Source: Phycisphaerae bacterium
GTDB lineage: Bacteria > Planctomycetota > Phycisphaerae > UBA1845
Direction of reading: 5' to 3'
DNA: 64,000 nucleotides
Assembly (NCBI GenBank): GCA_963666835.2
Contig: CAXXGO010000001.1
Span: 384,001-448,000, forward strand
Below, piece after piece: positions 45,418 through 64,000 of this stretch. The position numbers and the translations under genes are program-made. Under the pieces are notes generated by a model. It saw only the letters and a list, made by a program, of their open reading frames with translations. It was not told where the DNA came from and ran no database searches. Within the stretch, counting starts at the first letter, position 1. Every line of letters begins with the position of its first letter.

Positions 45418-45769
45418 GGGGGCGATTGGATTCGACCGGGCGAGAAGAAAGGAACGTTGCGTGCCGAGGTTGTCAGGTGGCCTCGTAAAAAACCTGGCGC
45501 TAACTTTACATGGCAACAATTCGTATGCCATGGCTGCCTAAAAGAAGGTAGCCCGTTGCGCGGAGGACGCCCACTACTCCGTGCAACGACGCTAGTGGGC
45601 TAGTTCCGGCGTGCGGCCAAGTCGCGCCGGAGCGAACCAATAACCTGGCTGGGGAACGCGGAAGCCTGTCGGCCGGCGTCCGCCGCCCCGAGACCCAAAA
45701 GACCGCCTACGCACGTAGAAGCGTCCCCGGATCCGTCGCGGGACGGGGGTTCGATTCCCCCCGCCTCCA
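45418..45769 (+). ncRNA. ssrA: tmRNA (transfer-messenger RNA)
   Basis: 5' GGGGGCG...GGATTCGAC. The 3' T-arm GGGGGTTCGATTCCCCC is followed by CGCCTCCA, giving an acceptor stem with G3-U wobble. Tag ORF 45512-45541 encodes GNNSYAMAA*. CCA is not encoded. Confidence 0.95.
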
Positions 45770-45941
45770 GTACGTAAGTCTCTGTAAACAGACGACTTAC
45801 GATCGATCGCCGGAACGGCGGGTACTCTCGCGGGTACTTCTTCCCGCTTTTCTGCCGCTTGTTCCGGCGCCTCGATCGAGTACAATCGGCACACTCGGTT
45901 TGCGGCCGACACACCTGAATCAACCCGAAAGGACAGGTGTG

Positions 45942-47138
45942 ATGGCCTCACTCGCCAAAGAAAAAGGCGCGATCTACCGCATCCACTGGAAGTTCAAGGT
46001 CCGCGTCGGCCCCCGGGCCGGCGAGACGATCGAGGGCAGCCACCAGCTCGGCCGCTGCACCAAAGCGGCCGCCAAGTCCCAGCTCCGCGACGTCGAAGAA
46101 TGGGAGGAACGAGTCAAGACCGGACGGCTCGTACCCGGCCGGGATTTCGGCGAGGTCTGCACCGCCTGGCTACGTGAACGGGAGCTGATCTGCACGGCCC
46201 AGACGTTGGAACGGACCGAGCGAGTCCTTAACCTGTACAAACGCTGGCGGCTGGAAGGCGGTCTCCCCTGCGGCACCGTGGTCGACGTGGCCAATCAGAC
46301 CGACCTGATCGCCTGGCGCGATCATCGCCTCGACTCCGAGGCCGGCCGTAAGACCGTCGCCAACGACCTCTCGACCCTCTCCGCGTTGTTCGAATGGTGC
46401 GTTCGCGAGAAGTACCTGCCGGACAACCCGGTCGAGCGGATCGCCCGGCCCCGGTTCATAACCCACAAAGAAGGTACGCCACTGACCCGACAGCAAGCCG
46501 GAGCGTGGCTGCGGTCCATCAAGCCGAGAATCGGCCGGAATGGTCACGGCCCGCGATCATGGGAGGAAGTCCGGCGCAAGCGTCAGCTAATCGTGTTTCT
46601 TCTGAACACCGGCCTGCGGAACGGGGAGCTCTGCGCTCTGAGTATCGAGGACTTGCGGATCGACGATGAAGAGCAGCTCGTCTACGTGATGGGCAAGGGG
46701 CTCAAGGAACGCTGGGTTCCACTCAACAAGTCGGCCCTCGCCGCCGCCCGCCTTCACCTGCGCACCCGAGGATGCCCGAAACGGGGTCCGCTGTTCCACA
46801 CGCGGGCCGGCACCCGGTACAACGTTCGGCAGCTGGCTAGTGAGATCGTCAAGACCGCCCGGGGTTACGACGAACCGATCGAAGCAAACCCGCACAATCT
46901 GCGGCACTCCTTCGCTACTTGGCTGGCGAGGTCCGTACCCGACGTCTCGATTGTCCAGAAGATCCTAGGCCACGAGAACGTCAACACGACGCTGAAGTAC
47001 TACGTCCACACGGGTGACCACGAGCTGGCACAAGCGACGGCCAGCCTTCGCGGTCGACGCCGAGAGAGCGAGACTAGGCAGGACCCCGATAGAGATGCGT
47101 TCCGGATCATCCCCTTTCCCGAGCGCCGCGTGAGTTGA
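45942..47138 (+). CDS. tyrosine recombinase/integrase
   Basis: Catalytic residues in TGLRNGEL (R), GKG (K), HNLRH (HxxR), LGH and LKYY (Y). Confidence 0.95.
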   Translation: MASLAKEKGAIYRIHWKFKVRVGPRAGETIEGSHQLGRCTKAAAKSQLRDVEEWEERVKTGRLVPGRDFGEVCTAWLRERELICTAQTLERTERVLNLYKRWRLEGGLPCGTVVDVANQTDLIAWRDHRLDSEAGRKTVANDLSTLSALFEWCVREKYLPDNPVERIARPRFITHKEGTPLTRQQAGAWLRSIKPRIGRNGHGPRSWEEVRRKRQLIVFLLNTGLRNGELCALSIEDLRIDDEEQLVYVMGKGLKERWVPLNKSALAAARLHLRTRGCPKRGPLFHTRAGTRYNVRQLASEIVKTARGYDEPIEANPHNLRHSFATWLARSVPDVSIVQKILGHENVNTTLKYYVHTGDHELAQATASLRGRRRESETRQDPDRDAFRIIPFPERRVS

Positions 47139-54376: not shown

Positions 54377-55045
54377 ATGAAGTGGAAAGTCGCGGCAGCT
54401 GCTGTTCTGGCGGTTCTCGTCCTTGGCGCTTCACCCGCCCGGGCCGGCAAGCCGATAGCAAACCCCTATCCGTTCGGCAAGGCCGAGGTACAGGGCAAGT
54501 CGATCGAGTACGTAGTGGAGTTACTCGCCATCGGCGACAAGTACCGCCGCCTCTGCCTCAACGCATGCTACGTCCAGAACTCGTTCGGTATCGCGGAGCA
54601 CAATGGCCGCGAGTCCAAGAACTGGTATCGCGCGGCCCTGGACCGGGAGCCCGGCAATGCCTACGCGAGCGTCTCGATCGGGTACGTCGATCTGATCCTC
54701 GGGCGCGCCGCACGCACCACAAGCGACCGGGACAGCTACTTTTCGGCGGCCATGGCTCGATTCCGCGAGGCTCTGGAGAAACGCCCGGGTTATGGCCGGG
54801 CCTATCTGTACATGGCCCAGGTCCAGGCCCTTCGCCAGGAGTACACCAAGGCCGAGAAGAACCTCGAGCTCATCCTCAACTCCGACATCGCCGAGTCGGA
54901 AACGCACTCGTGGATGGCGTACGTGCTGATCAAGACGAACCGCAAGAAGGAAGCCCAGAAACACATCGCCCGGGCTATTGAGTTGGATGACCCCTCCGAG
55001 TCGGCACGCTGGTGCCGGGACAACAGAAGAAGGGCGGAACGCTAA
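54377..55045 (+). CDS. exported TPR protein
   Basis: GGAGGAG RBS, signal peptide (ARA cleavage site) and TPR-like repeats. Confidence 0.75.
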   Translation: MKWKVAAAAVLAVLVLGASPARAGKPIANPYPFGKAEVQGKSIEYVVELLAIGDKYRRLCLNACYVQNSFGIAEHNGRESKNWYRAALDREPGNAYASVSIGYVDLILGRAARTTSDRDSYFSAAMARFREALEKRPGYGRAYLYMAQVQALRQEYTKAEKNLELILNSDIAESETHSWMAYVLIKTNRKKEAQKHIARAIELDDPSESARWCRDNRRRAER

Positions 55046-55046
55046 G

Positions 55047-55850
55047 ATGAGATTGCCGCGCACCTACGGATTCTGGTTGATTGCTCTGGCGACCCTGGGG
55101 ACGATCGGTTGTGCCACTATGGGCCCTCCACCCAGCGTCGAACCCCTCATGCCCCGACGCGGGATTACGCCGCGGTCGTACAAGATGAAACTCGCCGTGT
55201 TCAACCTGCAGGATCCGACCGGGTCCGGTGGTAAGCTGTCGGAGAGCGTCGCTGAGGTTCTGCACATTTCGCTCTTCGAGACGAATCGGTTCGAGCTGAT
55301 GCAGCGCGCCGAACTTCGCGGGATTGACCCGGGCGACACGAAGCGTATTCAGGAACAGTACCGCGACCGGCTCGACGCCCTCGTTGTGGGGAGCATCACC
55401 CACTTCGACACCGTCAAGAAAACCGTGGCGTTGAACGTCAACGTGATGAATCCGTACGGCACGACCATGGCCGCCAAGCACTTCGTGGTCAAATACAGCG
55501 GAAACATCAACGTCGACGCCGACCGCGACGATATCGACCGCATCGCCGAGTGGATCGAGAGATCGTTCCCGAAGCTTGCCACGGGCGAAGTCATCTCACG
55601 CTCCTCCGACCGGATTACGGTGAACCTCGGCACCGATAGCGGAGTACAGGTGGGGATGTGGATGCTCGTCGCTTCCCGCGGAGATATCGTCAGAGATCCC
55701 CAGACGGGCGAGTTCCTCGGCAGCGACATCTACGTTGGTGAAGTCTATGTGGTGGCCATCAACCCGGCCACGTGCGACGCTCGGCTCGTGCGGAACGTCA
55801 ACAAGCGAATCCCGCAGATCAAGGTCGGTGACAAGGTCGTGTTCAAATAG
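55047..55850 (+). CDS. lipoprotein with CsgG/TolB-N-like and FlgT-C-like domains
   Basis: Lipobox TIGC, KLAVFNL...TNRFELMQRAEL, and C-terminal ITVNLGTDSGVQVG...DPQTGEFLG...IKVGDKV. Confidence 0.7.
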   Translation: MRLPRTYGFWLIALATLGTIGCATMGPPPSVEPLMPRRGITPRSYKMKLAVFNLQDPTGSGGKLSESVAEVLHISLFETNRFELMQRAELRGIDPGDTKRIQEQYRDRLDALVVGSITHFDTVKKTVALNVNVMNPYGTTMAAKHFVVKYSGNINVDADRDDIDRIAEWIERSFPKLATGEVISRSSDRITVNLGTDSGVQVGMWMLVASRGDIVRDPQTGEFLGSDIYVGEVYVVAINPATCDARLVRNVNKRIPQIKVGDKVVFK

Positions 55851-55863
55851 GAGTTCCCCTGCG

Positions 55864-56286
55864 ATGTTGTGGAAGACTCTTGGACTCGGATTGTTGGGGT
55901 TGATTGCCCTCGGCCAAAGCGAACCAACCCGGCCCGGCGAACCCGCGCACGCCGGCGCCGAACAGGCTCGCTCGGATCTTCTGGTTACGCTGGAGCATGT
56001 CGGAGGGAGGATCGAGGTCTTCGGCGACGAGGTCTATCGCCTGGAGCTGATTCTGGATGCCTCCGGGAAGCTCGACCAGGTGCACCTGATCATCCGCTCC
56101 GCCGAGGAAGTCGACACGCACGTCTGGTACAACGTCGACAACCTGGTAAGCGTGCGCTATCGATTCGTGGAGATCACCGGCAAGGGGAAGGTGATGGTCC
56201 GCACCGTCACCCCGCCCAAGATAAAACCGCCCACGGTCACCCACAAATCCGAGGTTCCTGCTCTGGAACCGGAAGATTACCGTTAG
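55864..56286 (+). CDS. exported hypothetical protein
   Basis: AGGAG RBS, signal-like N-terminus, operonic with the two preceding genes. Confidence 0.6.
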   Translation: MLWKTLGLGLLGLIALGQSEPTRPGEPAHAGAEQARSDLLVTLEHVGGRIEVFGDEVYRLELILDASGKLDQVHLIIRSAEEVDTHVWYNVDNLVSVRYRFVEITGKGKVMVRTVTPPKIKPPTVTHKSEVPALEPEDYR

Positions 56287-56302: not shown

Positions 56303-59300
56303 CTACTCCGAATAACGCAGTCTGGACTCGAGCTTGCGCTTGACGGCCGGCGGCGGATCGCACTGACGCCCCTGGCGGAACGAACGGATTGCAGCCGCGA
56401 CCTGCTCGCAGGCGAGCTGGGCGTCGCCGAGCAGTAGCCACGCTTCGGCATTCCGCGGCTCGTACCTCGTGGCCGAACTTGCAGAAACCACCGCGGCGGC
56501 GAATTCACCCTGGGCGAGCTGCACCCGGCCCCTCACAAACCAGGCGTGTCCGTACCCCGGGAACACGTCCGTCGCCCGCTTCGCGTAATCCCCGGCCCGG
56601 TCAAGCCTCTGGGCCCGCTCGTGGACCAGAGCGGCAAGGACGAGGGCCTCGCCGTTGTCCGGATTGTCCTCGAGAACATCCTCCAGCCATGGAAGGGCCT
56701 TCTCCGCCGAACGGCGGTCCCCGGCGAGCATTGTCCGAGCCAGGCCTAGCCGGGCCGCGGTGTGGTCTTCGTCGACCTCAAGGGCCCGCTCGAAGTCTTT
56801 CCGGGCGGAACGCGTCCAGCCCTTCTTCCGCAGCTCGGCGTAGCCGCGAAGAACGAGAGTCTCCGCGTCGCGCGGATGGGCGTCCAGAATCTCCGTGCAG
56901 GCCTCGATGGCCGCATCGATCTTCCCGTCCTCGAGGTCGCGACACGCTCTGGCGAACAGATCCCGCTCGTTCTGCGGACGGGATTCGGCCGGTGGAGTAT
57001 CTCCCCGCAGCCCAGCCGCAATGTCGCTCGCCATGTGATCGGGAATCCCGGAGACGTGGCCGGACCACCGGGCTTGCCGCACCATGTTCCCGGTGGAAGC
57101 ATCGACAATCCGGACGAGGATCGAGACCATGCCCTCATCGAATCGGAACTCGCCATCGATCAACAGCTCGGCGCCGACGTGGCGAGCAGCGTCCGCCTTG
57201 TTCCCTCCGGCCGTCTCCAGAGCCCCAGCGACAGTCGCCCGCTCGACCACCGTACAAAGGTCTGCATCCCGCAATCCCAGGTAGAGTGCTTGATCGACAA
57301 GCGTCCCGAGGTGCCCGGATGGTGGCACCCCGGCGTCGTTGTTGACGGAGAACAACGCGCAGGTCTGCGCTGTGTAATCCACCGCTTCTTCGGACTCGAC
57401 CGCAGGCTCACCGGTCGCGACCGGCTCGCCCGCGCCGGCCTCTTCCGTCGATGTCACGTCGGCCGCGACATCCGTCTCCGCCACAACCCGGAGCCCGTAG
57501 GTGTAGCCGCGGAAGCCCGGCCTGCCCCTGCTTCGATACGCACAACGGCAGAAGCTCGCAAGGTCGAACCCCGAGCCGCCCCGGTGAACACGGTACATAC
57601 CGCTGTCAGGACCGGTCGGATCCCGGTCTGGAGAATCGGCATAATAGTCCTCTCCGTACCAATCACCGCACCACTCCCAGACGTTGTCGTGCAGGTCATA
57701 TAGGCCCCACGGGTTGGGCTGATTCACGCCCACTGAATGAATCTCAGACGCGGAAATACCCCGACACCAGGCGTGGTCGTCCAGACGGCCCTTCGAGTCG
57801 CCGAATGAGTACGCCGTCGTAGTGCCCGCTCGGCACGAGTACTCCCACTCCGCCTCCGTAGGTAGCCGGGTCGTTCGACCAGTCCGCGCCGACAGCTTCC
57901 GGCAGAATTCCTGGCAGTCACTCCACGATACCTTCTGTACCGGATGATCGGCGCCCGTGAACCCGGACGGAACGCCTCCCATAACCGCCCGCCACTGCGC
58001 CTGCGTTACCTCGTACTTGCCCAGGTAGAACGGCTGGCTGATTCGGACGCGATGCAGCGGGTCCTCGTCACTATCGCTGTTGCTCGACCCCATCAGGAAC
58101 TCGCCCGCCGGAATCAATACCAGCTCCATCGTCACCCCGCTGCCCAAATCGAGGGTGAGCGTCGAGGCGGGATCATACTGGCGTCCACTCTCCTCCCTCA
58201 GCCGATCGGACACCTCCGGTGTGCTCACAGCCTTCTCAGGTACCCCCGCCGCAACCCGAAACCCGACGCTGCAGTTCCGTTTGTCCGGCGTGCCTATGAC
58301 ACGATACGCCGAGCGCAGGCTCACACCGTGGATGTCCAAGGCCCCGCCCCTAAAAGCGCTTCCTCCGGTGTTTCTCGACCCCACCGGATCCACCTGGACA
58401 CCGGACGGGTAAGCGCCCAGCCAGTCTGCACACCACTCGTAGACATTGCCGTGCATATCATGCAGACCCCACGGGTTGGGCTGCTTCGTACCCACCGCGT
58501 GCGTCACCCCCCCGGAGTTACCTTTATGCCACGCGTAATCGCTCAGGCGAGCCGTCGAGTCTCCGAACGAATACGCCGTCGTCGTCCCGGCCCGGCACGA
58601 GTACTCCCACTCCGCCTCTGTCGGAAGCCGAATCGGATGCCCCGCGTGCCTGGACAGCCGCCGGCAGAACTCCTGAATGTCATTCCACGACACCCTCTCG
58701 ACCGGACGGTTGTCGCCCTTGAACTTCGACGGATCACTCCCCATCACCGCGCGCCACTGGGCCTGCGTTACCTCGTACTTGCCGATGTAGAACGGGCTGC
58801 TAATCCTGACGGGATGGGGCGGCCTCTCGCCACTGCCTCCGTTGTTCGAGCCCATGGTGAACTCGCCCGCAGGTATCAACACCAACTCCATCGTCACCCC
58901 GCCGCCCAGGTCGATGGTGCGCGTTGGGGCTAGATCCTGGCGACCTCCGATCCCATCCTCCAGTCGAACCGCCTTCGTAGCCCCGACCTCGGGGACCGGC
59001 GGTTCCTCCTTCGCTTCGTCATAATCCACGGTCCCGGCACCATCGGAGACTACCGCCGGATCCTCGATAGCGGTGATACGATCATGCTCGTCTAGCGCCT
59101 CCGGGTCATCAGGGAATAATGCCAGTGCCACGCGGACAGCCCTCAGTCCCCGGTCGCGCTGGGCATACGTTGTGCAATCCCTGGCCGTGACCATGTTCCG
59201 CTCGTATCTCTCGCGCCTCTTCCGTTGCTTAACGACCGCCGGATCTTCGATAGCCTCGATCCGATCGCGCTGGAGCAACGCCTCCGGGTCGTCGGGGTAT

Positions 59301-60763
59301 AGAGCTAGAGCATCCCGTACGGCCGCCAGACCCAGTTCACGGCGGGCGTACGTCGTGCAACCGCGGGCCCTGCCCATCAGTTGCTCGTAGGTCCGTTGCT
59401 TCTCGCGGTCGGCAGCAATCGCGGGGTCGACCATATTCCCGATACGCTCGCGCTCGGCCAGCGCCTCCGGGTCGTCCGGGATCAAGAGCAAGGCCTCCCG
59501 CACCGCCGCAAGACCCGCCGTGCGATCCGCATACGATGTGCACCCTTTCGCCACAGCCAGCAGCTCATCAAACCGGGCGAGCTTCTGTTGGCCGGGATCA
59601 ACGGCCGCCGGTAGCTGGTCAGCTTCTTGCCCTTCGTCAGGAAGCGTCGCCACCGGGCTTGTTACCGGGGCAGGACTCACCTGCGAGCCGGGAGTACCTG
59701 ACCCGCCCCCCGTAATCGCCCAGATCCCGACGGCGGCCAGGACGACCACCGCCGCCAGGCCGATCCACCAGGCCGCGCGGGACGGCGAGTGGCCGGCTAT
59801 GGCGCTCAGACTCGCGCGGGCCTCGGCGGCTTCTTGGTACCGACGAGACGGATCGGCTTCCAGAGCCCGGCTGATCCAAGCATCCCACGGGGAAAGCTCG
59901 GCATCTTCTTGTCCCGGCAGACGAGTGATGCCCTCCGGCAATCTACCCATCAGCATGCGATAGGCCATCAGACCGACGGCGTAGAGATCCGTGCGGTGGT
60001 CCACGGTGGTCCCGGGCTTCTTCTGTTCGGGGGCCATGTACGACCACGTGCCGATCAGCGCCTGCGTGCTCGTACCGGCCGGAGAACCGCCCTCGTCGGG
60101 CATATCCGACCCGGCTTGGCCGTCGATGGTCGGCGCCGAGCCGATCGAAGTATCTCGCCCGCTCTTGACATCCATATCGCCCGCCGCACCCGGAATGGTC
60201 GGAGCGGAACCCAGCGAGAGGGACTCGCTGATACTGGTGAAGATCCGGTCGCGAAACATCGCCTCGCCGACGATCCGCACCAGGCCGAAATCCGCGATCC
60301 GGGCCATGGGGCCGGACGGGGTCTGCTCTATCAGCACGTTGGCCGGCTTGAGATCGCGGTGGACAACACCCTCGTCGTGGGCGTAGCTGAGCCCGTCGAG
60401 GATTTGCCCGACCAGCCGAGCGGTCGTGCGACTGTCGAGTTTGGCGCCGTGGTCCTTCAGGTAGCGGTGGAGGTCCATCGGGCCGTCGTCGTCGCCGACG
60501 TAGGCCATGACGACATACGGCCGACCGTCCTGGTCGAGATCGCTGTGCTCGATCTTGAGCAGATGGGGGTGGTCCAGCTCGGCCTGTACTTGGGCCTCTT
60601 TCTTGAACCGGTCGAGGGCCGACTCGCTGCCGTCGGTGTGCAGTACCTTGATCGCCCGGCGAAATCCGAGGTCACGGTGCTGGCACAGATACACCGCGCC
60701 CATCCCCCCACACCCCAGCCGCCGCAGGACCTTGTACGGACCAATCTGTTGCGGGTCAGTCAT
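56303..60763 (-). CDS. membrane Ser/Thr kinase: kinase-TM-helical repeats-2x FGE-sulfatase (CLec)-CsgG-like-TPR
   Basis: GCGGMG, AIK, HRDLKPAN, DFG and APE kinase motifs; a TM helix; two LIPAGEF...RLPTEAEWEY...G(F/L)RV domains; C-terminal TPRs. Confidence 0.92.
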   Translation of the reverse strand: MTDPQQIGPYKVLRRLGCGGMGAVYLCQHRDLGFRRAIKVLHTDGSESALDRFKKEAQVQAELDHPHLLKIEHSDLDQDGRPYVVMAYVGDDDGPMDLHRYLKDHGAKLDSRTTARLVGQILDGLSYAHDEGVVHRDLKPANVLIEQTPSGPMARIADFGLVRIVGEAMFRDRIFTSISESLSLGSAPTIPGAAGDMDVKSGRDTSIGSAPTIDGQAGSDMPDEGGSPAGTSTQALIGTWSYMAPEQKKPGTTVDHRTDLYAVGLMAYRMLMGRLPEGITRLPGQEDAELSPWDAWISRALEADPSRRYQEAAEARASLSAIAGHSPSRAAWWIGLAAVVVLAAVGIWAITGGGSGTPGSQVSPAPVTSPVATLPDEGQEADQLPAAVDPGQQKLARFDELLAVAKGCTSYADRTAGLAAVREALLLIPDDPEALAERERIGNMVDPAIAADREKQRTYEQLMGRARGCTTYARRELGLAAVRDALALYPDDPEALLQRDRIEAIEDPAVVKQRKRRERYERNMVTARDCTTYAQRDRGLRAVRVALALFPDDPEALDEHDRITAIEDPAVVSDGAGTVDYDEAKEEPPVPEVGATKAVRLEDGIGGRQDLAPTRTIDLGGGVTMELVLIPAGEFTMGSNNGGSGERPPHPVRISSPFYIGKYEVTQAQWRAVMGSDPSKFKGDNRPVERVSWNDIQEFCRRLSRHAGHPIRLPTEAEWEYSCRAGTTTAYSFGDSTARLSDYAWHKGNSGGVTHAVGTKQPNPWGLHDMHGNVYEWCADWLGAYPSGVQVDPVGSRNTGGSAFRGGALDIHGVSLRSAYRVIGTPDKRNCSVGFRVAAGVPEKAVSTPEVSDRLREESGRQYDPASTLTLDLGSGVTMELVLIPAGEFLMGSSNSDSDEDPLHRVRISQPFYLGKYEVTQAQWRAVMGGVPSGFTGADHPVQKVSWSDCQEFCRKLSARTGRTTRLPTEAEWEYSCRAGTTTAYSFGDSKGRLDDHAWCRGISASEIHSVGVNQPNPWGLYDLHDNVWEWCGDWYGEDYYADSPDRDPTGPDSGMYRVHRGGSGFDLASFCRCAYRSRGRPGFRGYTYGLRVVAETDVAADVTSTEEAGAGEPVATGEPAVESEEAVDYTAQTCALFSVNNDAGVPPSGHLGTLVDQALYLGLRDADLCTVVERATVAGALETAGGNKADAARHVGAELLIDGEFRFDEGMVSILVRIVDASTGNMVRQARWSGHVSGIPDHMASDIAAGLRGDTPPAESRPQNERDLFARACRDLEDGKIDAAIEACTEILDAHPRDAETLVLRGYAELRKKGWTRSARKDFERALEVDEDHTAARLGLARTMLAGDRRSAEKALPWLEDVLEDNPDNGEALVLAALVHERAQRLDRAGDYAKRATDVFPGYGHAWFVRGRVQLAQGEFAAAVVSASSATRYEPRNAEAWLLLGDAQLACEQVAAAIRSFRQGRQCDPPPAVKRKLESRLRYSE
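57479..57592 (-). repeat. internal DGR variable-repeat-like segment (sister of 63667-63780)
   Basis: Gapless 114-nt alignment with 21 mismatches, 18 of them at codon positions 1 or 2. Confidence 0.7.
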
Positions 60764-60819
60764 GCTACTCACTCAACCTCGCATGCCGCACTCATTGGCG
60801 AGCGGTGAAGGAAACCGGG

Positions 60820-63417
60820 CTAGGGGGCCCCGGCTACAACACGGAACCCGACATCGAAGCGGCAGAAGTCGGGCGGGACCCCCACGCGGTCCGCAGAACG
60901 GGAAGTGTGGATTCGGCCCGCGAATTGGCCGCCACGCGCCACAAAGCGGCCCTCGCCATACTGCGGTCCGCGCGGGTCGATTTGTGAATCGGACGGGTAC
61001 CGGCCGTAGATATCCGCGCACCACTCGCACACGTTCCCGTGCATGTCATACAGACCCCAAGGATTCGGTTGCTTCTCACCAACTGGGTGAGCCTGGTTGC
61101 CGCTGTTGCTGTCGCACCATTCGAATGAGTCAATCCGATCGGGGGTGTCGCCAAACGAGTAGGCTGTCGTCGTGCCGGCCCGGCAGGCGTACTCCCACTC
61201 CGCTTCCGTTGGAAGACGAAACTCACGTCCAACCCGCCGCGAAAGCTCTCGACAGAAAGCCGTTGCGTCTTCCCACGAAACGGCGCGCATCGGGTGGCGA
61301 TCACCGTATCCCCTCAACCCCCAAGCCCCTTTCTTCTTGGCACGTTGCTGACGCAAGGTCGTGCCTGTAACGGCCTCCCATTGCGCCTGCGTCACTTCGT
61401 ACTTACCCATGTAAAACGGCCGGCTAATCCTCACCCGATGTTGCGGGCCTTCATCATCCTGACGGCCTGCTTCCGACGACGGCGAACCCATCATGAACTC
61501 ACCCGCCGGGATCAACACCAGCTCCATTGTCACTCCGCCACCGAGGTCGATCGTCAACGTCGGATCGGGACCATAGTACCCTTGGATCTTCTCCTTCAAC
61601 CGAAGGGCCTCGGAGTGGCCGGGATCGAGCACTAACAACTCCTTGAGAGCCTGCAACGCCGCCCTCCCGGTGGCTTCGCTATCGTTCGCCTTCGCCTCCC
61701 GCAACAACCCGGAGACCCGCTCACGCCGATCCCGGGCCGCACGCTCCTGAGGGGACTCTAGCGACTCCAAACGCCCACGCTCAGCCAACGCCGCCGAATT
61801 GGAAGGGTACAGTTCCAGGGCCCGACGAATCGCCGACAATCCCCTGTCACGATCCGGGTACGTCGTGCAGCCTCTGGCAGTGGTGAGTAGCTGGGAGAAC
61901 CTGCCCCGTTTCTCCCGTTCGGCAACCACCGCCGGATCCTCGATTCCGGCGATACGGGTTCGCTCCGCCAACGCCGCCGCGTCGTCAGGGTACAGAGCCA
62001 GAGCCTCACGCAAGGCCGTCAGACCCCGATCGCGGGAGGAATACGCCGTGCAACCCTTGGCCGTGGCAATTAGCTGCTCGTACTGCTGCCGCTTCTCGCG
62101 CTCGGCAACGACAACCGGATCCTCGATCCGCCCGATACGCTCCCGCTCCGCGATCGCTTGAGGGTCATCGGGGAACAGAAGCAACGCCTCCCGCACCGCG
62201 GAGAAACCCCTGTCACGATCCGAGTAGGTCGTACACGCCTCCGCAATGGCCAGCAGTTCATCGAATCGCGCAAGCTTCTGTTGGCCGAGATCAACCACCT
62301 CCGGGGGAGATTCAGCTTCTCGCCCGTCGTCAGGAGGAACCACCGCCATCTTACTAGATACCGGTGGCGAATCCGCTAGCTTCTCGGAAGTGCCCGACCC
62401 AACGCCCGAAATCGCCCACAACCAAACGGCCGCAAGGACCACCACGGCCGCAAGGGCCAGTATCCGACGACGGCCGCCGCGGCCGGTCGCGCGGAGGTCG
62501 CTCAGTAGTCCGGCTGCCGAGGCGTAGCGTTCCCTGGGGTCCTCGGGGAGACATCTGTCGACGACAGCGTCCCATCGCGTCGGCAGGGCGCGAACGACCC
62601 GGGACGGGGGCTTCGCCCTCGCCGTGGGCCGCTTGCCCGTGAGCAGTCGGTACACCACTACCCCGAAAGAGTAGATGTCCGTGCGCTCGTCAATCTGGCC
62701 GGTGCCTTCGCCGCGCTGCTCCGGGGACATATAGTCGTAGGTGCCCAGAATGCTAGAGGCGCTGCTCGTGCGGCGGCTGCCGCTTCCTTCCGCGGGGATC
62801 GTGGCCGCGGCGTCGAGGGAATCTAACGCGCCGTCCGGGGATGGCGAGTGCAGCGTCGGACCGCTGCCCAGCGAGTGCTGCATCGTCGAGTGGATCTGCG
62901 AGAGAATGAACTCGCTCCCGATCGCCTTGGCCAGGCCGAAGTCGGTCAGCTTCGCATCGCCATCGGCGTCGATCAGGATGTTGGCCGGCTTGAGATCACG
63001 GTGGATCACGCCCCGCTCGTGGGCGTACTGCAGCGCCTCGGCGATCTGGATGGACCACTTCCGCACTTTGGCCTCGGGCAAGCGGCCGTCCGGCTGCTGC
63101 TTGAGGTGCTCGTGCAGGCTCAGCGGCTTGCCCTCCGGTCCGGTCACGTAGTCCATGACCAGGAAGTACACCCCCTCGGCCTGGCTCATCTGGTGAACCT
63201 GCACGATGTTCGGATGATGCAGATCGGCCATCACCCGGGCCTCGTCGTAGAATCGGGCGACGAACCCCTTATCCTGCGCCAGCCCGGCCGGCAGGATCTT
63301 CAGCGCGTACTTCTTACGCAGGTGAACGTGCTCGGCCAGATAAACCTCGCCCATCCCACCCGCGCCGATAGATTCCACGACCCGATAGTCGCCGAGTTGT
63401 CTGTCGATGAACGTCAT
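60820..63417 (-). CDS. membrane Ser/Thr kinase: kinase-TM-helical repeats-FGE-sulfatase (CLec)
   Basis: GAGGMG, ALK, HRDLKPAN, DFG and SPE kinase motifs; a TM helix; a C-terminal FGE domain. Start set at MTFID (63417). Confidence 0.92.
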   Translation of the reverse strand: MTFIDRQLGDYRVVESIGAGGMGEVYLAEHVHLRKKYALKILPAGLAQDKGFVARFYDEARVMADLHHPNIVQVHQMSQAEGVYFLVMDYVTGPEGKPLSLHEHLKQQPDGRLPEAKVRKWSIQIAEALQYAHERGVIHRDLKPANILIDADGDAKLTDFGLAKAIGSEFILSQIHSTMQHSLGSGPTLHSPSPDGALDSLDAAATIPAEGSGSRRTSSASSILGTYDYMSPEQRGEGTGQIDERTDIYSFGVVVYRLLTGKRPTARAKPPSRVVRALPTRWDAVVDRCLPEDPRERYASAAGLLSDLRATGRGGRRRILALAAVVVLAAVWLWAISGVGSGTSEKLADSPPVSSKMAVVPPDDGREAESPPEVVDLGQQKLARFDELLAIAEACTTYSDRDRGFSAVREALLLFPDDPQAIAERERIGRIEDPVVVAEREKRQQYEQLIATAKGCTAYSSRDRGLTALREALALYPDDAAALAERTRIAGIEDPAVVAEREKRGRFSQLLTTARGCTTYPDRDRGLSAIRRALELYPSNSAALAERGRLESLESPQERAARDRRERVSGLLREAKANDSEATGRAALQALKELLVLDPGHSEALRLKEKIQGYYGPDPTLTIDLGGGVTMELVLIPAGEFMMGSPSSEAGRQDDEGPQHRVRISRPFYMGKYEVTQAQWEAVTGTTLRQQRAKKKGAWGLRGYGDRHPMRAVSWEDATAFCRELSRRVGREFRLPTEAEWEYACRAGTTTAYSFGDTPDRIDSFEWCDSNSGNQAHPVGEKQPNPWGLYDMHGNVCEWCADIYGRYPSDSQIDPRGPQYGEGRFVARGGQFAGRIHTSRSADRVGVPPDFCRFDVGFRVVAGAP

Positions 63418-63563
63418 GGGCAGTTTCTGCCTTTTGGTCTTTGGCACGACAGTCGCAAATCGCCTCTGGGACCGCAAGATGTCGAGCGGGCGACACATCC
63501 CATCCCGCCGCGACCCAATCGCCACAGGACCTTGTACGGACCGATCTGTTGCGGGTCAGTCAT
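63414..63563 (-). pseudogene. vestigial kinase N-terminus (49-aa ORF)
   Basis: MTDPQQIGPYKVLWRLGRGGMG is nearly identical to the start of the 60763 kinase, then diverges. Its TGA overlaps the ATG at 63417. Confidence 0.7.
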
Positions 63564-63601
63564 GCTTGCCACTCAACTTCGCACGCCGCTATCAGCGGCG
63601 A

Positions 63602-63660
63602 CCAGGGGCTCCGCCCCTGGACCCCGGGAAAAGAGAAAAGAGTTAAGGGGAAAAGGGTAA
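63602..63660 (-). promoter_or_regulatory. putative DGR IMH-region pyrimidine tract and hairpin
   Basis: Minus strand ttacccttttccccttaactcttttctcttttccc, then CCAGGGGC-GGA-GCCCCTGG (8-bp stem, 3-nt loop, 63602-63620). Confidence 0.7.
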
Positions 63661-64000
63661 AGTCCCCGCCACAACCCGGAACCCGAGGCTGCTGCTGCGG
63701 AGGCCCGGCCTGCTCCTGATGCGATCCGCACAACGGCAGTAGTGAGCGAGGTAGATCCACGAGCCGCCCCGGAGAACACGGTATTTGCCACTACCAGGTC
63801 CGGTCGGGTTCGTACCCGGAGAGCTCGCATAATAGTCCTCTCCGTACCAGTCACCGCACCATTCCCAAACGTTCCCGTGCATATCATGCAAACCCCACCC
63901 GTTAGGCTGTTTCGCTCCCACCGAATGCGTCTGCTTCCCGGAGTTGCCCGTGTACCAAGCATGGTCGCCCAAGCCCCCCGAAGAGTCTCCGAACGAGTAC
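63643..64000 (-). CDS. 3' end of an FGE-sulfatase (CLec) domain protein, putative DGR target; start lies beyond the window
   Basis: PNGWGLHDMHGNVWEWC...RVLRGGSW...CRCADR...LGFRVV, with NNC codons at the variable positions. Confidence 0.88.
   Translation of the reverse strand, partial: YSFGDSSGGLGDHAWYTGNSGKQTHSVGAKQPNGWGLHDMHGNVWEWCGDWYGEDYYASSPGTNPTGPGSGKYRVLRGGSWIYLAHYCRCADRIRSRPGLRSSSLGFRVVAGTLPFSP

Follow-up and report, generated by a model that had tools for sequence, protein, structure and literature searches.

Domain organization of the fused gene

A gene encoding a 1489-aa protein lies on the minus strand near the right end of the window, by which we mean the whole stretch of 64,000 nucleotides that was analysed (C1:384001-448000, where C1 is contig CAXXGO010000001.1). 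Coordinates without a contig prefix are window positions. The second CLec/FGE domain of this gene ends in a segment resembling the variable repeats (VRs) of DGRs, and the frame reads on through it into further domains. The features of the gene are as follows; template sites are defined below.

56303..60772, minus strand, 1489-aa gene: Ser/Thr kinase, TM helix (aa ~332-357), helical repeats, CLec/FGE domain 1, CLec/FGE domain 2 (with int441), linker, probable CsgG/TolB-N-like domain, TPRs
58247..58360, minus strand, older VR-equivalent of CLec/FGE domain 1 (old442), 27 of 85 fixed sites off-template
57479..58147, minus strand, CLec/FGE domain 2, modelled with pLDDT 93.5, closest in fold to TvpA (2y3c; TMq 0.91, rmsd 1.6)
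57479..57592, minus strand, internal VR (int441), closing 38 codons of CLec/FGE domain 2, with changes at 21 of 29 inferred adenine sites and off-template letters at 6 of 85 fixed sites
56969..57409, minus strand, predicted CsgG/TolB-N-like domain 3' of the VR, ESM-Atlas 0.95, no Pfam match
56336..56929, minus strand, TPR region, by Pfam

The domain that carries int441 at its end is an FGE-type CLec domain (Pfam PF03781), with TvpA as the best match by sequence as well as by fold. The Ser-Cys-Cys catalytic set of formylglycine-generating enzyme was absent after GGS, where an Asp stands opposite the first Cys of the Streptomyces FGE motif. The position of the TM helix would place the CLec domains and the tail opposite the kinase, an arrangement that would fit receptor kinases. 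The original prediction had named the tail CsgG/TPR. TPRs were found by Pfam; CsgG was not, even at E<=1, but TolB-N/CsgG/LpoB was the top ESM-Atlas reading of the tail domain, with 164 of 256 features in common. By this model reading, 56969..57409 is likely to be a distant CsgG/TolB-N-like domain. No close homologue of it was found elsewhere in the genome or in the protein database searched, and a search with the 390-aa tail returned just three weak TPR matches, among homologues with lengths of 214-683. No orthologue of the fused gene emerged when 40 relatives and 300 class members were searched at the DNA level; the best matches were short stretches of 70-81% identity. A single-sequence fold of the CLec domain with the tail (pLDDT 40.9) was discarded, and PADLOC matches concerned the kinase domain alone and were uninformative. 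A convergent TPR gene and a TolB-N/CsgG-like lipoprotein gene (54377-56286, weak Pfam matches) face the end of the fused gene.

The array of CLec genes and the tmRNA-linked island

The fused gene is the last in an array of seven CLec-bearing genes, six of them with a kinase, at C1:440-472 kb. The genome contains seven VR-like copies, five of them terminal (t447, t450, t464, t465 and t468) and two internal. Two further, older domains (old442 and old444) are barely recognisable as VR-equivalents.

60820..63525, minus strand, neighbouring kinase-TM-CLec gene, with terminal VR-equivalent old444 at 60832-60945 (28 of 85 sites off-template, no hairpins)
63667..63780, minus strand, terminal VR (t447) of the next kinase-CLec gene, stop codon at 63643-63645, 0 of 85 sites off-template
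C1:454197-454310, minus strand, second internal VR, within kinase-CLec gene C1:453741-456386, fused to a GspG/T2SSG pseudopilin tail
45418..45772, plus strand, tmRNA gene, island left end, with 40 bp of its 3' end repeated at C1:514383-514422 (blastn)
45900..47138, plus strand, tyrosine integrase of the island

The GspG-type tail of the second internal copy shares 63% identity with a stretch at C1:39059 that resembles gspG. The array lies between the tmRNA gene with its adjoining integrase and the 40-bp repeat of the tmRNA end, and is therefore probably cargo of a tmRNA-linked island. A further copy of the tmRNA 3' end, of 19 nt, was noted by eye at C1:473459-473477, and more integrases lie at C1:473446 and 514631; the end copies and integrases are probably tandem elements at one site. 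The same island carries CRISPR-Cas genes at C1:494612-505742 (GSU0053, GSU0054 and Cas3 by Pfam), which we take to be of type I-G, and a likely repeat array.

Comparison of the internal and terminal repeats

As shown by a gap-free alignment, int441 and t447 correspond on the minus strand and in frame. Our recount reproduced the 21 mismatches in 114 nt of the original prediction, 18 of them at codon positions 1 or 2 (11, 7 and 3 at positions 1, 2 and 3, respectively). The framework codons that it quoted were identical in the two copies, but its description of an identical framework did not extend beyond them, as six changes elsewhere fell at positions without a template-adenine explanation. The frame of int441 continues for 390 codons past the VR, and that of t447 stops 7 codons past it.

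Just upstream of the VR the two genes have diverged at third positions, as had been claimed. Third positions differed in 30 of 66 gap-free codons upstream and in 3 of 38 within the VR (Fisher p=5.7e-5); over the 66 upstream codons, differences at codon positions 1, 2 and 3 numbered 12, 15 and 30. Synonymous identity was likewise greater inside the VR. Among codons for the same amino acid, 53 of 125 differed upstream and 3 of 23 in the VR (p=0.009), and when only the nearest 40 upstream codons were taken, 11 of 26 differed as against the same 3 of 23 (p=0.03). With int441 set against each of the five terminal copies, synonymous differences were lower in the VR than upstream throughout (p 0.0003-0.058). 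The contrast was not significant against t465 (p=0.058) and, when restricted to the near 40 codons, not significant against t465 and t468.

The C-terminus of FGE proteins is conserved across many proteins, and similarity of this kind could arise from ordinary conservation of a protein motif with no retroelement involved. This explanation is refuted. The identity sits at silent positions, the two old domains have no silent bias (third-position differences 15/51 and 17/53), and avd stubs stand behind two of the terminal copies.

Origin of the repeats from a DGR

The original prediction held that both copies were written from the same template. In agreement with this, 80 foreign template-like repeats have adenines at 26 of the 32 columns that vary among the five terminal copies, as against 3 of the 82 constant ones (p=8e-17). 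A template inferred from the terminal copies comprised 29 adenine sites and 85 fixed sites. Measured against this inferred template, which stands in for a real TR, int441 carried 21 changes at the 29 adenine sites and 6 at the 85 others. An exact scan for the template pattern gave one metagenome-contig match and six genome-contig matches, all cyanobacterial (the metagenome one by likeness) and none close; a looser pattern gave 116 stretches, which were taken as foreign controls.

No TR was found in the assembly (92% complete, 7 contigs) when blastn (word 7) was run with two VRs and the inferred template. When the 85 fixed sites were sought without gaps along all 7 contigs, just the 7 VRs and more distant FGE ends came up. 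A full DGR reverse transcriptase (RT) was also absent: the 14 RVT_1 matches were group II intron-like or RT-Cas1-like, and a custom DGR-RT profile found the same RTs in the genome and, beyond them, only a 34-codon stub at C1:625664. Two avd stubs (C1:463550-463942 and 465505-465897, below the Pfam cut-off) follow t464 and t465. Both are cut at the same point, about residue 88, and they differ from each other at 31 of 393 nt. The stubs probably mark the former site of the RT and TR. A genome of the same family (G138) contains an intact cassette of target, IMH, hairpin, avd, RT and TR, and its Avd is 52% identical to the stubs. A search for related loci with the avd stub gave one weak match.

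Signals behind the variable repeats

Behind t447 we found the following signals.

63622..63661, minus strand, pyrimidine-rich tract (IMH-like), 83% C/T, overlapping the stop codon of the t447 gene
63584..63620, minus strand, two DNA hairpins behind t447, one with an 8-bp stem and GGA loop (63602-63620), the other with a 7-bp stem (63584-63600)

The tract and hairpins were present behind all five terminal copies and behind neither of the two internal copies. Thus int441 lacks the stop codon, pyrimidine tract and hairpins, as originally reported. The 40 nt 3' of int441 were 38% pyrimidine, as against 65-83% behind the terminal copies, and the likeness between int441 and t447 stopped 5 nt past the VR. 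In t464, 15 nt have been lost from the tract and the first stem is imperfect; this copy is the most drifted of the terminal ones. In the BPP-1 DGR a hairpin just behind the VR is required for efficient homing, according to the available text of Guo et al. (2011, PMC3240598), and deletion of the stem-loop lowers homing without abolishing it, according to that of PMC12875486. The target-site rules in the available parts of these two papers supply a mechanism for freezing here, although they derive from BPP-1 and not from the present DGR.

Drift away from the inferred template

Off-template changes at the 85 fixed sites formed a graded series: 0 in t447, t450 and t468, 1 in t465, 3 in t464, 6 in each internal copy, and 27 and 28 in the old domains. 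The internal copies together had 12 of 170 sites off-template and the terminal copies 4 of 425 (p=1.3e-4; int441 alone, p=0.002). The low counts of the terminal copies are partly built in, since the template was inferred from these copies. A leave-one-out template, which softens this effect without removing it, gave 4-6 of 81-84 sites for the internal copies and 0, 0, 0, 1 and 3 for the terminal ones, in the same order. The six changes in int441 were scattered over codons 3 to 34. Codon 11 has T at position 3 in both internal copies and in t464, and codon 13 has A at position 1 in int441 and in 78% of foreign templates. Some of the off-template letters may go back to an earlier state of the template.

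The copies t447 and t450 are identical over about 900 nt (C1:447400-448317) save at 21 positions, all of them VR adenine sites. Writing therefore went on long after the internal copies had begun to drift. This bears on the explanation that the whole DGR is dead in this genome, with all VRs as leftovers and position in the gene irrelevant. The lack of a TR by blastn and by the genome-wide framework scan, the lack of a full DGR RT, and the truncation of both array avd copies at about residue 88 all agree with it, and it may be true today; set against these absences is the incomplete state of the assembly. A dead element leaves the drift difference unexplained, because the last rewriting of t447 and t450 postdates the identity of their flanks and is much younger than the 7% drift seen in the internal copies. 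With siblings rewritten recently, global loss of the element cannot account for the contrast between internal and terminal copies, and we regard this explanation as very unlikely.

Foreign VRs with a TR in the same locus served as a control, provided that their GGSW and GF motifs were intact and that they had no more than 15 mismatches. Of 43 such VRs, 31 had no off-template change and 5, all terminal, had 5 or more. Drift is thus not confined to internal copies; the motif and mismatch filter makes the control blind to copies as changed as int441. The sole internal VR among the controls, in L069:2065-6060 (Isosphaeraceae bacterium), had 0 of 76 sites off-template in a locus with RT and TR, and it retains the hairpin of its terminal siblings inside the coding linker. 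An internal position alone therefore does not freeze a VR, and loss of the signals is the likely cause, in line with the available text of PMC3240598.

We consider it likely that int441 is a DGR variable repeat that is no longer rewritten: the fusion would have removed the cis signals, homing would have stopped or become very rare, and drift would have followed. The lock proposed in the original prediction is likely in so far as it concerns loss of the homing signals, for these are gone and the excess drift arose while sister copies were being rewritten. Its further proposal of a selected archive was not supported.

Alternatively, the fusion may be old, and int441 may still be written in place, or have been until lately, at a low rate without a hairpin, off-template changes accruing between rare events. 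The residual homing without a stem-loop described in the available text of PMC12875486 agrees with this, as does the account of Thiohalocapsa in that of PMC10907252, where internal VRs are written less often than terminal ones. The likeness of int441 and t447 also ends at the same point past the VR as the VR-TR likeness in G138. This coincidence of 5 nt is weak evidence, because only 21 nt are open to a fusion that preserves the last strand but loses the stop. The dispersal of the six off-template changes over the VR counts against slow rewriting as well, and so does the lack of any variant in contigs of two studies. On balance, continued slow writing seems rather improbable.

The original prediction expected no read variation at 57.5 kb, and none was seen in these contigs. 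The VR was unchanged in contigs of four runs (at most 3 samples, 2 studies), which drop rare variants and have a depth of about 2.5-13. Single contigs spanned it in runs X1, X2 and X3, and two overlapping pieces did so in X4; X1 and X3 are one sample, perhaps the source sample of the assembly. In X2 the 1542-nt contig with unchanged int441 had 3 differences elsewhere. At the 63.7-kb VR, among the positions listed, the whole depth of X2 has another letter at 63695, a difference confounded by three paralogues that carry that letter too. Over 61900-63600, every letter that X2 showed behind the 63.6-kb hairpin and at 62012-62075 was of paralogue type. There is a hint here that the array differs between strains.

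The array contains long near-identical tracts and mosaics, and strain X2 appears rearranged behind the 63.6-kb hairpin. Such features would suit arrival of the VR by recombination or gene conversion from a terminal target in place of retrohoming. Third-position differences, on the other hand, drop from the VR edge onward, as in the terminal paralogues. Moreover, int441 differs from every extant VR at 21-30 positions, so that no donor is present. We hold this origin to be improbable.

Proposed history of the internal copies

If int441 was frozen by loss of its signals, its CLec domain would first have been an ordinary target at a gene end, in an array that grew by duplication and consisted mostly of kinase-CLec sensor genes. 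The CsgG/TolB-N-like and TPR tail would have been joined on in frame somewhere in the 21 nt that separate the VR from the old stop, by a fusion that also removed the cis signals. Retrohoming at int441 would then have ceased or become very rare while the siblings were still being rewritten, and int441 would since have been changed by ordinary mutation. Fusion to the GspG-type pseudopilin tail at C1:454197-454310 would be an independent parallel, and the same process may have taken place far earlier at the two older domains. The lock itself would be a side effect of domain shuffling.

Possible selection on the frozen domain

The original prediction went further and saw in the locked copy an archive of selected specificities. 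As an addition to the freezing explanation, this would mean that the fusion was favoured for locking a useful binding specificity and that the frozen domain is under purifying selection. Four of the six post-freeze changes in int441 were non-synonymous, close to the neutral share of 0.65. The int441 domain has also lost the Trp of GGSW to Gly (W193G, domain numbering) and the Gly of MHG to Asp (G154D). These residues occurred in none of 120 homologues, of which 103 have the Trp and 120 the Gly. The GGSW Trp aligns with the GGSW Trp of TvpA and is gone from both older frozen domains too. Constant aromatics in the binding site are known for this fold from the available text of PMC6328139, and by analogy the Trp lost from int441 may be one of them.

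Other observations would suit selection. The open reading frame is intact and the VR is identical in a second strain (X2), which at 3 differences in 1542 nt is too close for showing selection. CLec/FGE domain 2 was modelled with high pLDDT (value given above). Its 4 departures at 82 conserved columns are within background (83 of 120 homologues have 0-3), and its F>L and L>H changes, shared by 37 and 7 of the 120 homologues, respectively, are tolerated ones. The second internal copy has just 2 of 6 changes non-synonymous, and two independent fusions occurred within one array. Taken together, selection for an archive at int441 appears unlikely. An earlier reading of F>L and L>H as decay, drawn from 49 foreign domains, was dropped, both being common among the 120 homologues. 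The second internal VR, in the GspG-tailed gene, keeps the Trp and Phe and has 4 of 6 changes silent; judged by its sequence, it is a better candidate than int441 for a kept variant.

A broader model is doubtful but may be stated. The DGR would rewrite terminal kinase-CLec sensors, and gain of a C-terminal module at the 3' edge of the VR would be a recurring, selected exit that fixes a variant and links it to an additional interaction domain, of CsgG/TPR type in one case and GspG type in the other. The frozen VRs would then form a dated series (0, 1, 3, 6 and 27-28 changes) that also records earlier template states.

Relation to known systems

Leftover targets, paralogues with remnant VRs, active internal VRs, and shuffling, decay and unequal activity are already published. 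Particular to this array are the graded drift series, the active siblings and the two independent fusions. No description of VR freezing by C-terminal fusion was found in the literature searched, whose supplements may list similar internal copies. The comparisons below refer to the available text of each paper.

In multicellular bacteria, the clade-5 DGRs that act on CLec1/FGE targets (Dore et al. 2024, PMC10907252) also have FGE-type CLec targets fused to signalling domains. They share duplication, domain shuffling, degraded redundant components and VRs of unequal activity, and one target (DGR 1) among them is silent. Internal VRs in those systems are found in CLec domains arranged in tandem; they agree with the TR and undergo diversification. 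The internal copies here, by contrast, no longer have the cis signals, run on into unrelated domains and have drifted.

For cyanobacterial kinase-CLec targets, remote targets and paralogues with remnant VRs are known, and removal of DGR parts after selection is an idea already published (Vallota-Eastman et al. 2020, PMC7517822). Remote VR matches are described there near 3' ends only, whereas freezing here is tied to C-terminal fusion in a tandem array whose siblings are active. Isolates of Treponema denticola (Nimkulrat et al. 2016, PMC4891356) likewise have VR-bearing genes without RT or TR, with the same fold (TvpA). Loss of the core orphans all targets in those isolates, but freezing in this array is staggered and tied to loss of each copy's own cis signals. 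Wu et al. (2018, PMC5758913) describe VRs inside the coding sequence and up to eight tandem targets. Those internal VRs are apparently mutagenised and their IMH overlaps coding sequence, unlike int441, which lacks the signals and has drifted off-template.

These results bear on how the host of a DGR spares a good variant from overwriting, for which loss of the entire element or a dispersal of its targets has been proposed in print. The array points to a copy-specific route, in which cis signals are lost through C-terminal fusion beside siblings still rewritten, and presents it at several stages of drift. It is a natural test set for the hairpin rule, and its frozen VRs offer a means of reading the past of the template. 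Internal segments that resemble VRs should not be tallied as active targets. Unless its variant was selected, int441 is a well-documented relic of a known system.

Other DGR-related sequences in the genome

At C1:483200-489871 lies a further group of surface proteins with FGE domains, whose ends are internal and Asn-codon-like; it is possibly another frozen DGR family. It includes a full-length Avd-like stretch (C1:484534-484833) that has no start of its own and is in frame with another ORF. A separate DGR relic at C1:625514-625770 consists of a P-loop NTPase-like ORF, presumably of KAP type, with which an FGE fragment and the initial 34 codons of a DGR RT overlap. A 955-aa ORF at C6:1808107-1810971 has an RT domain between Cas6-like and Cas1-like parts, as labelled by eye from the translation.
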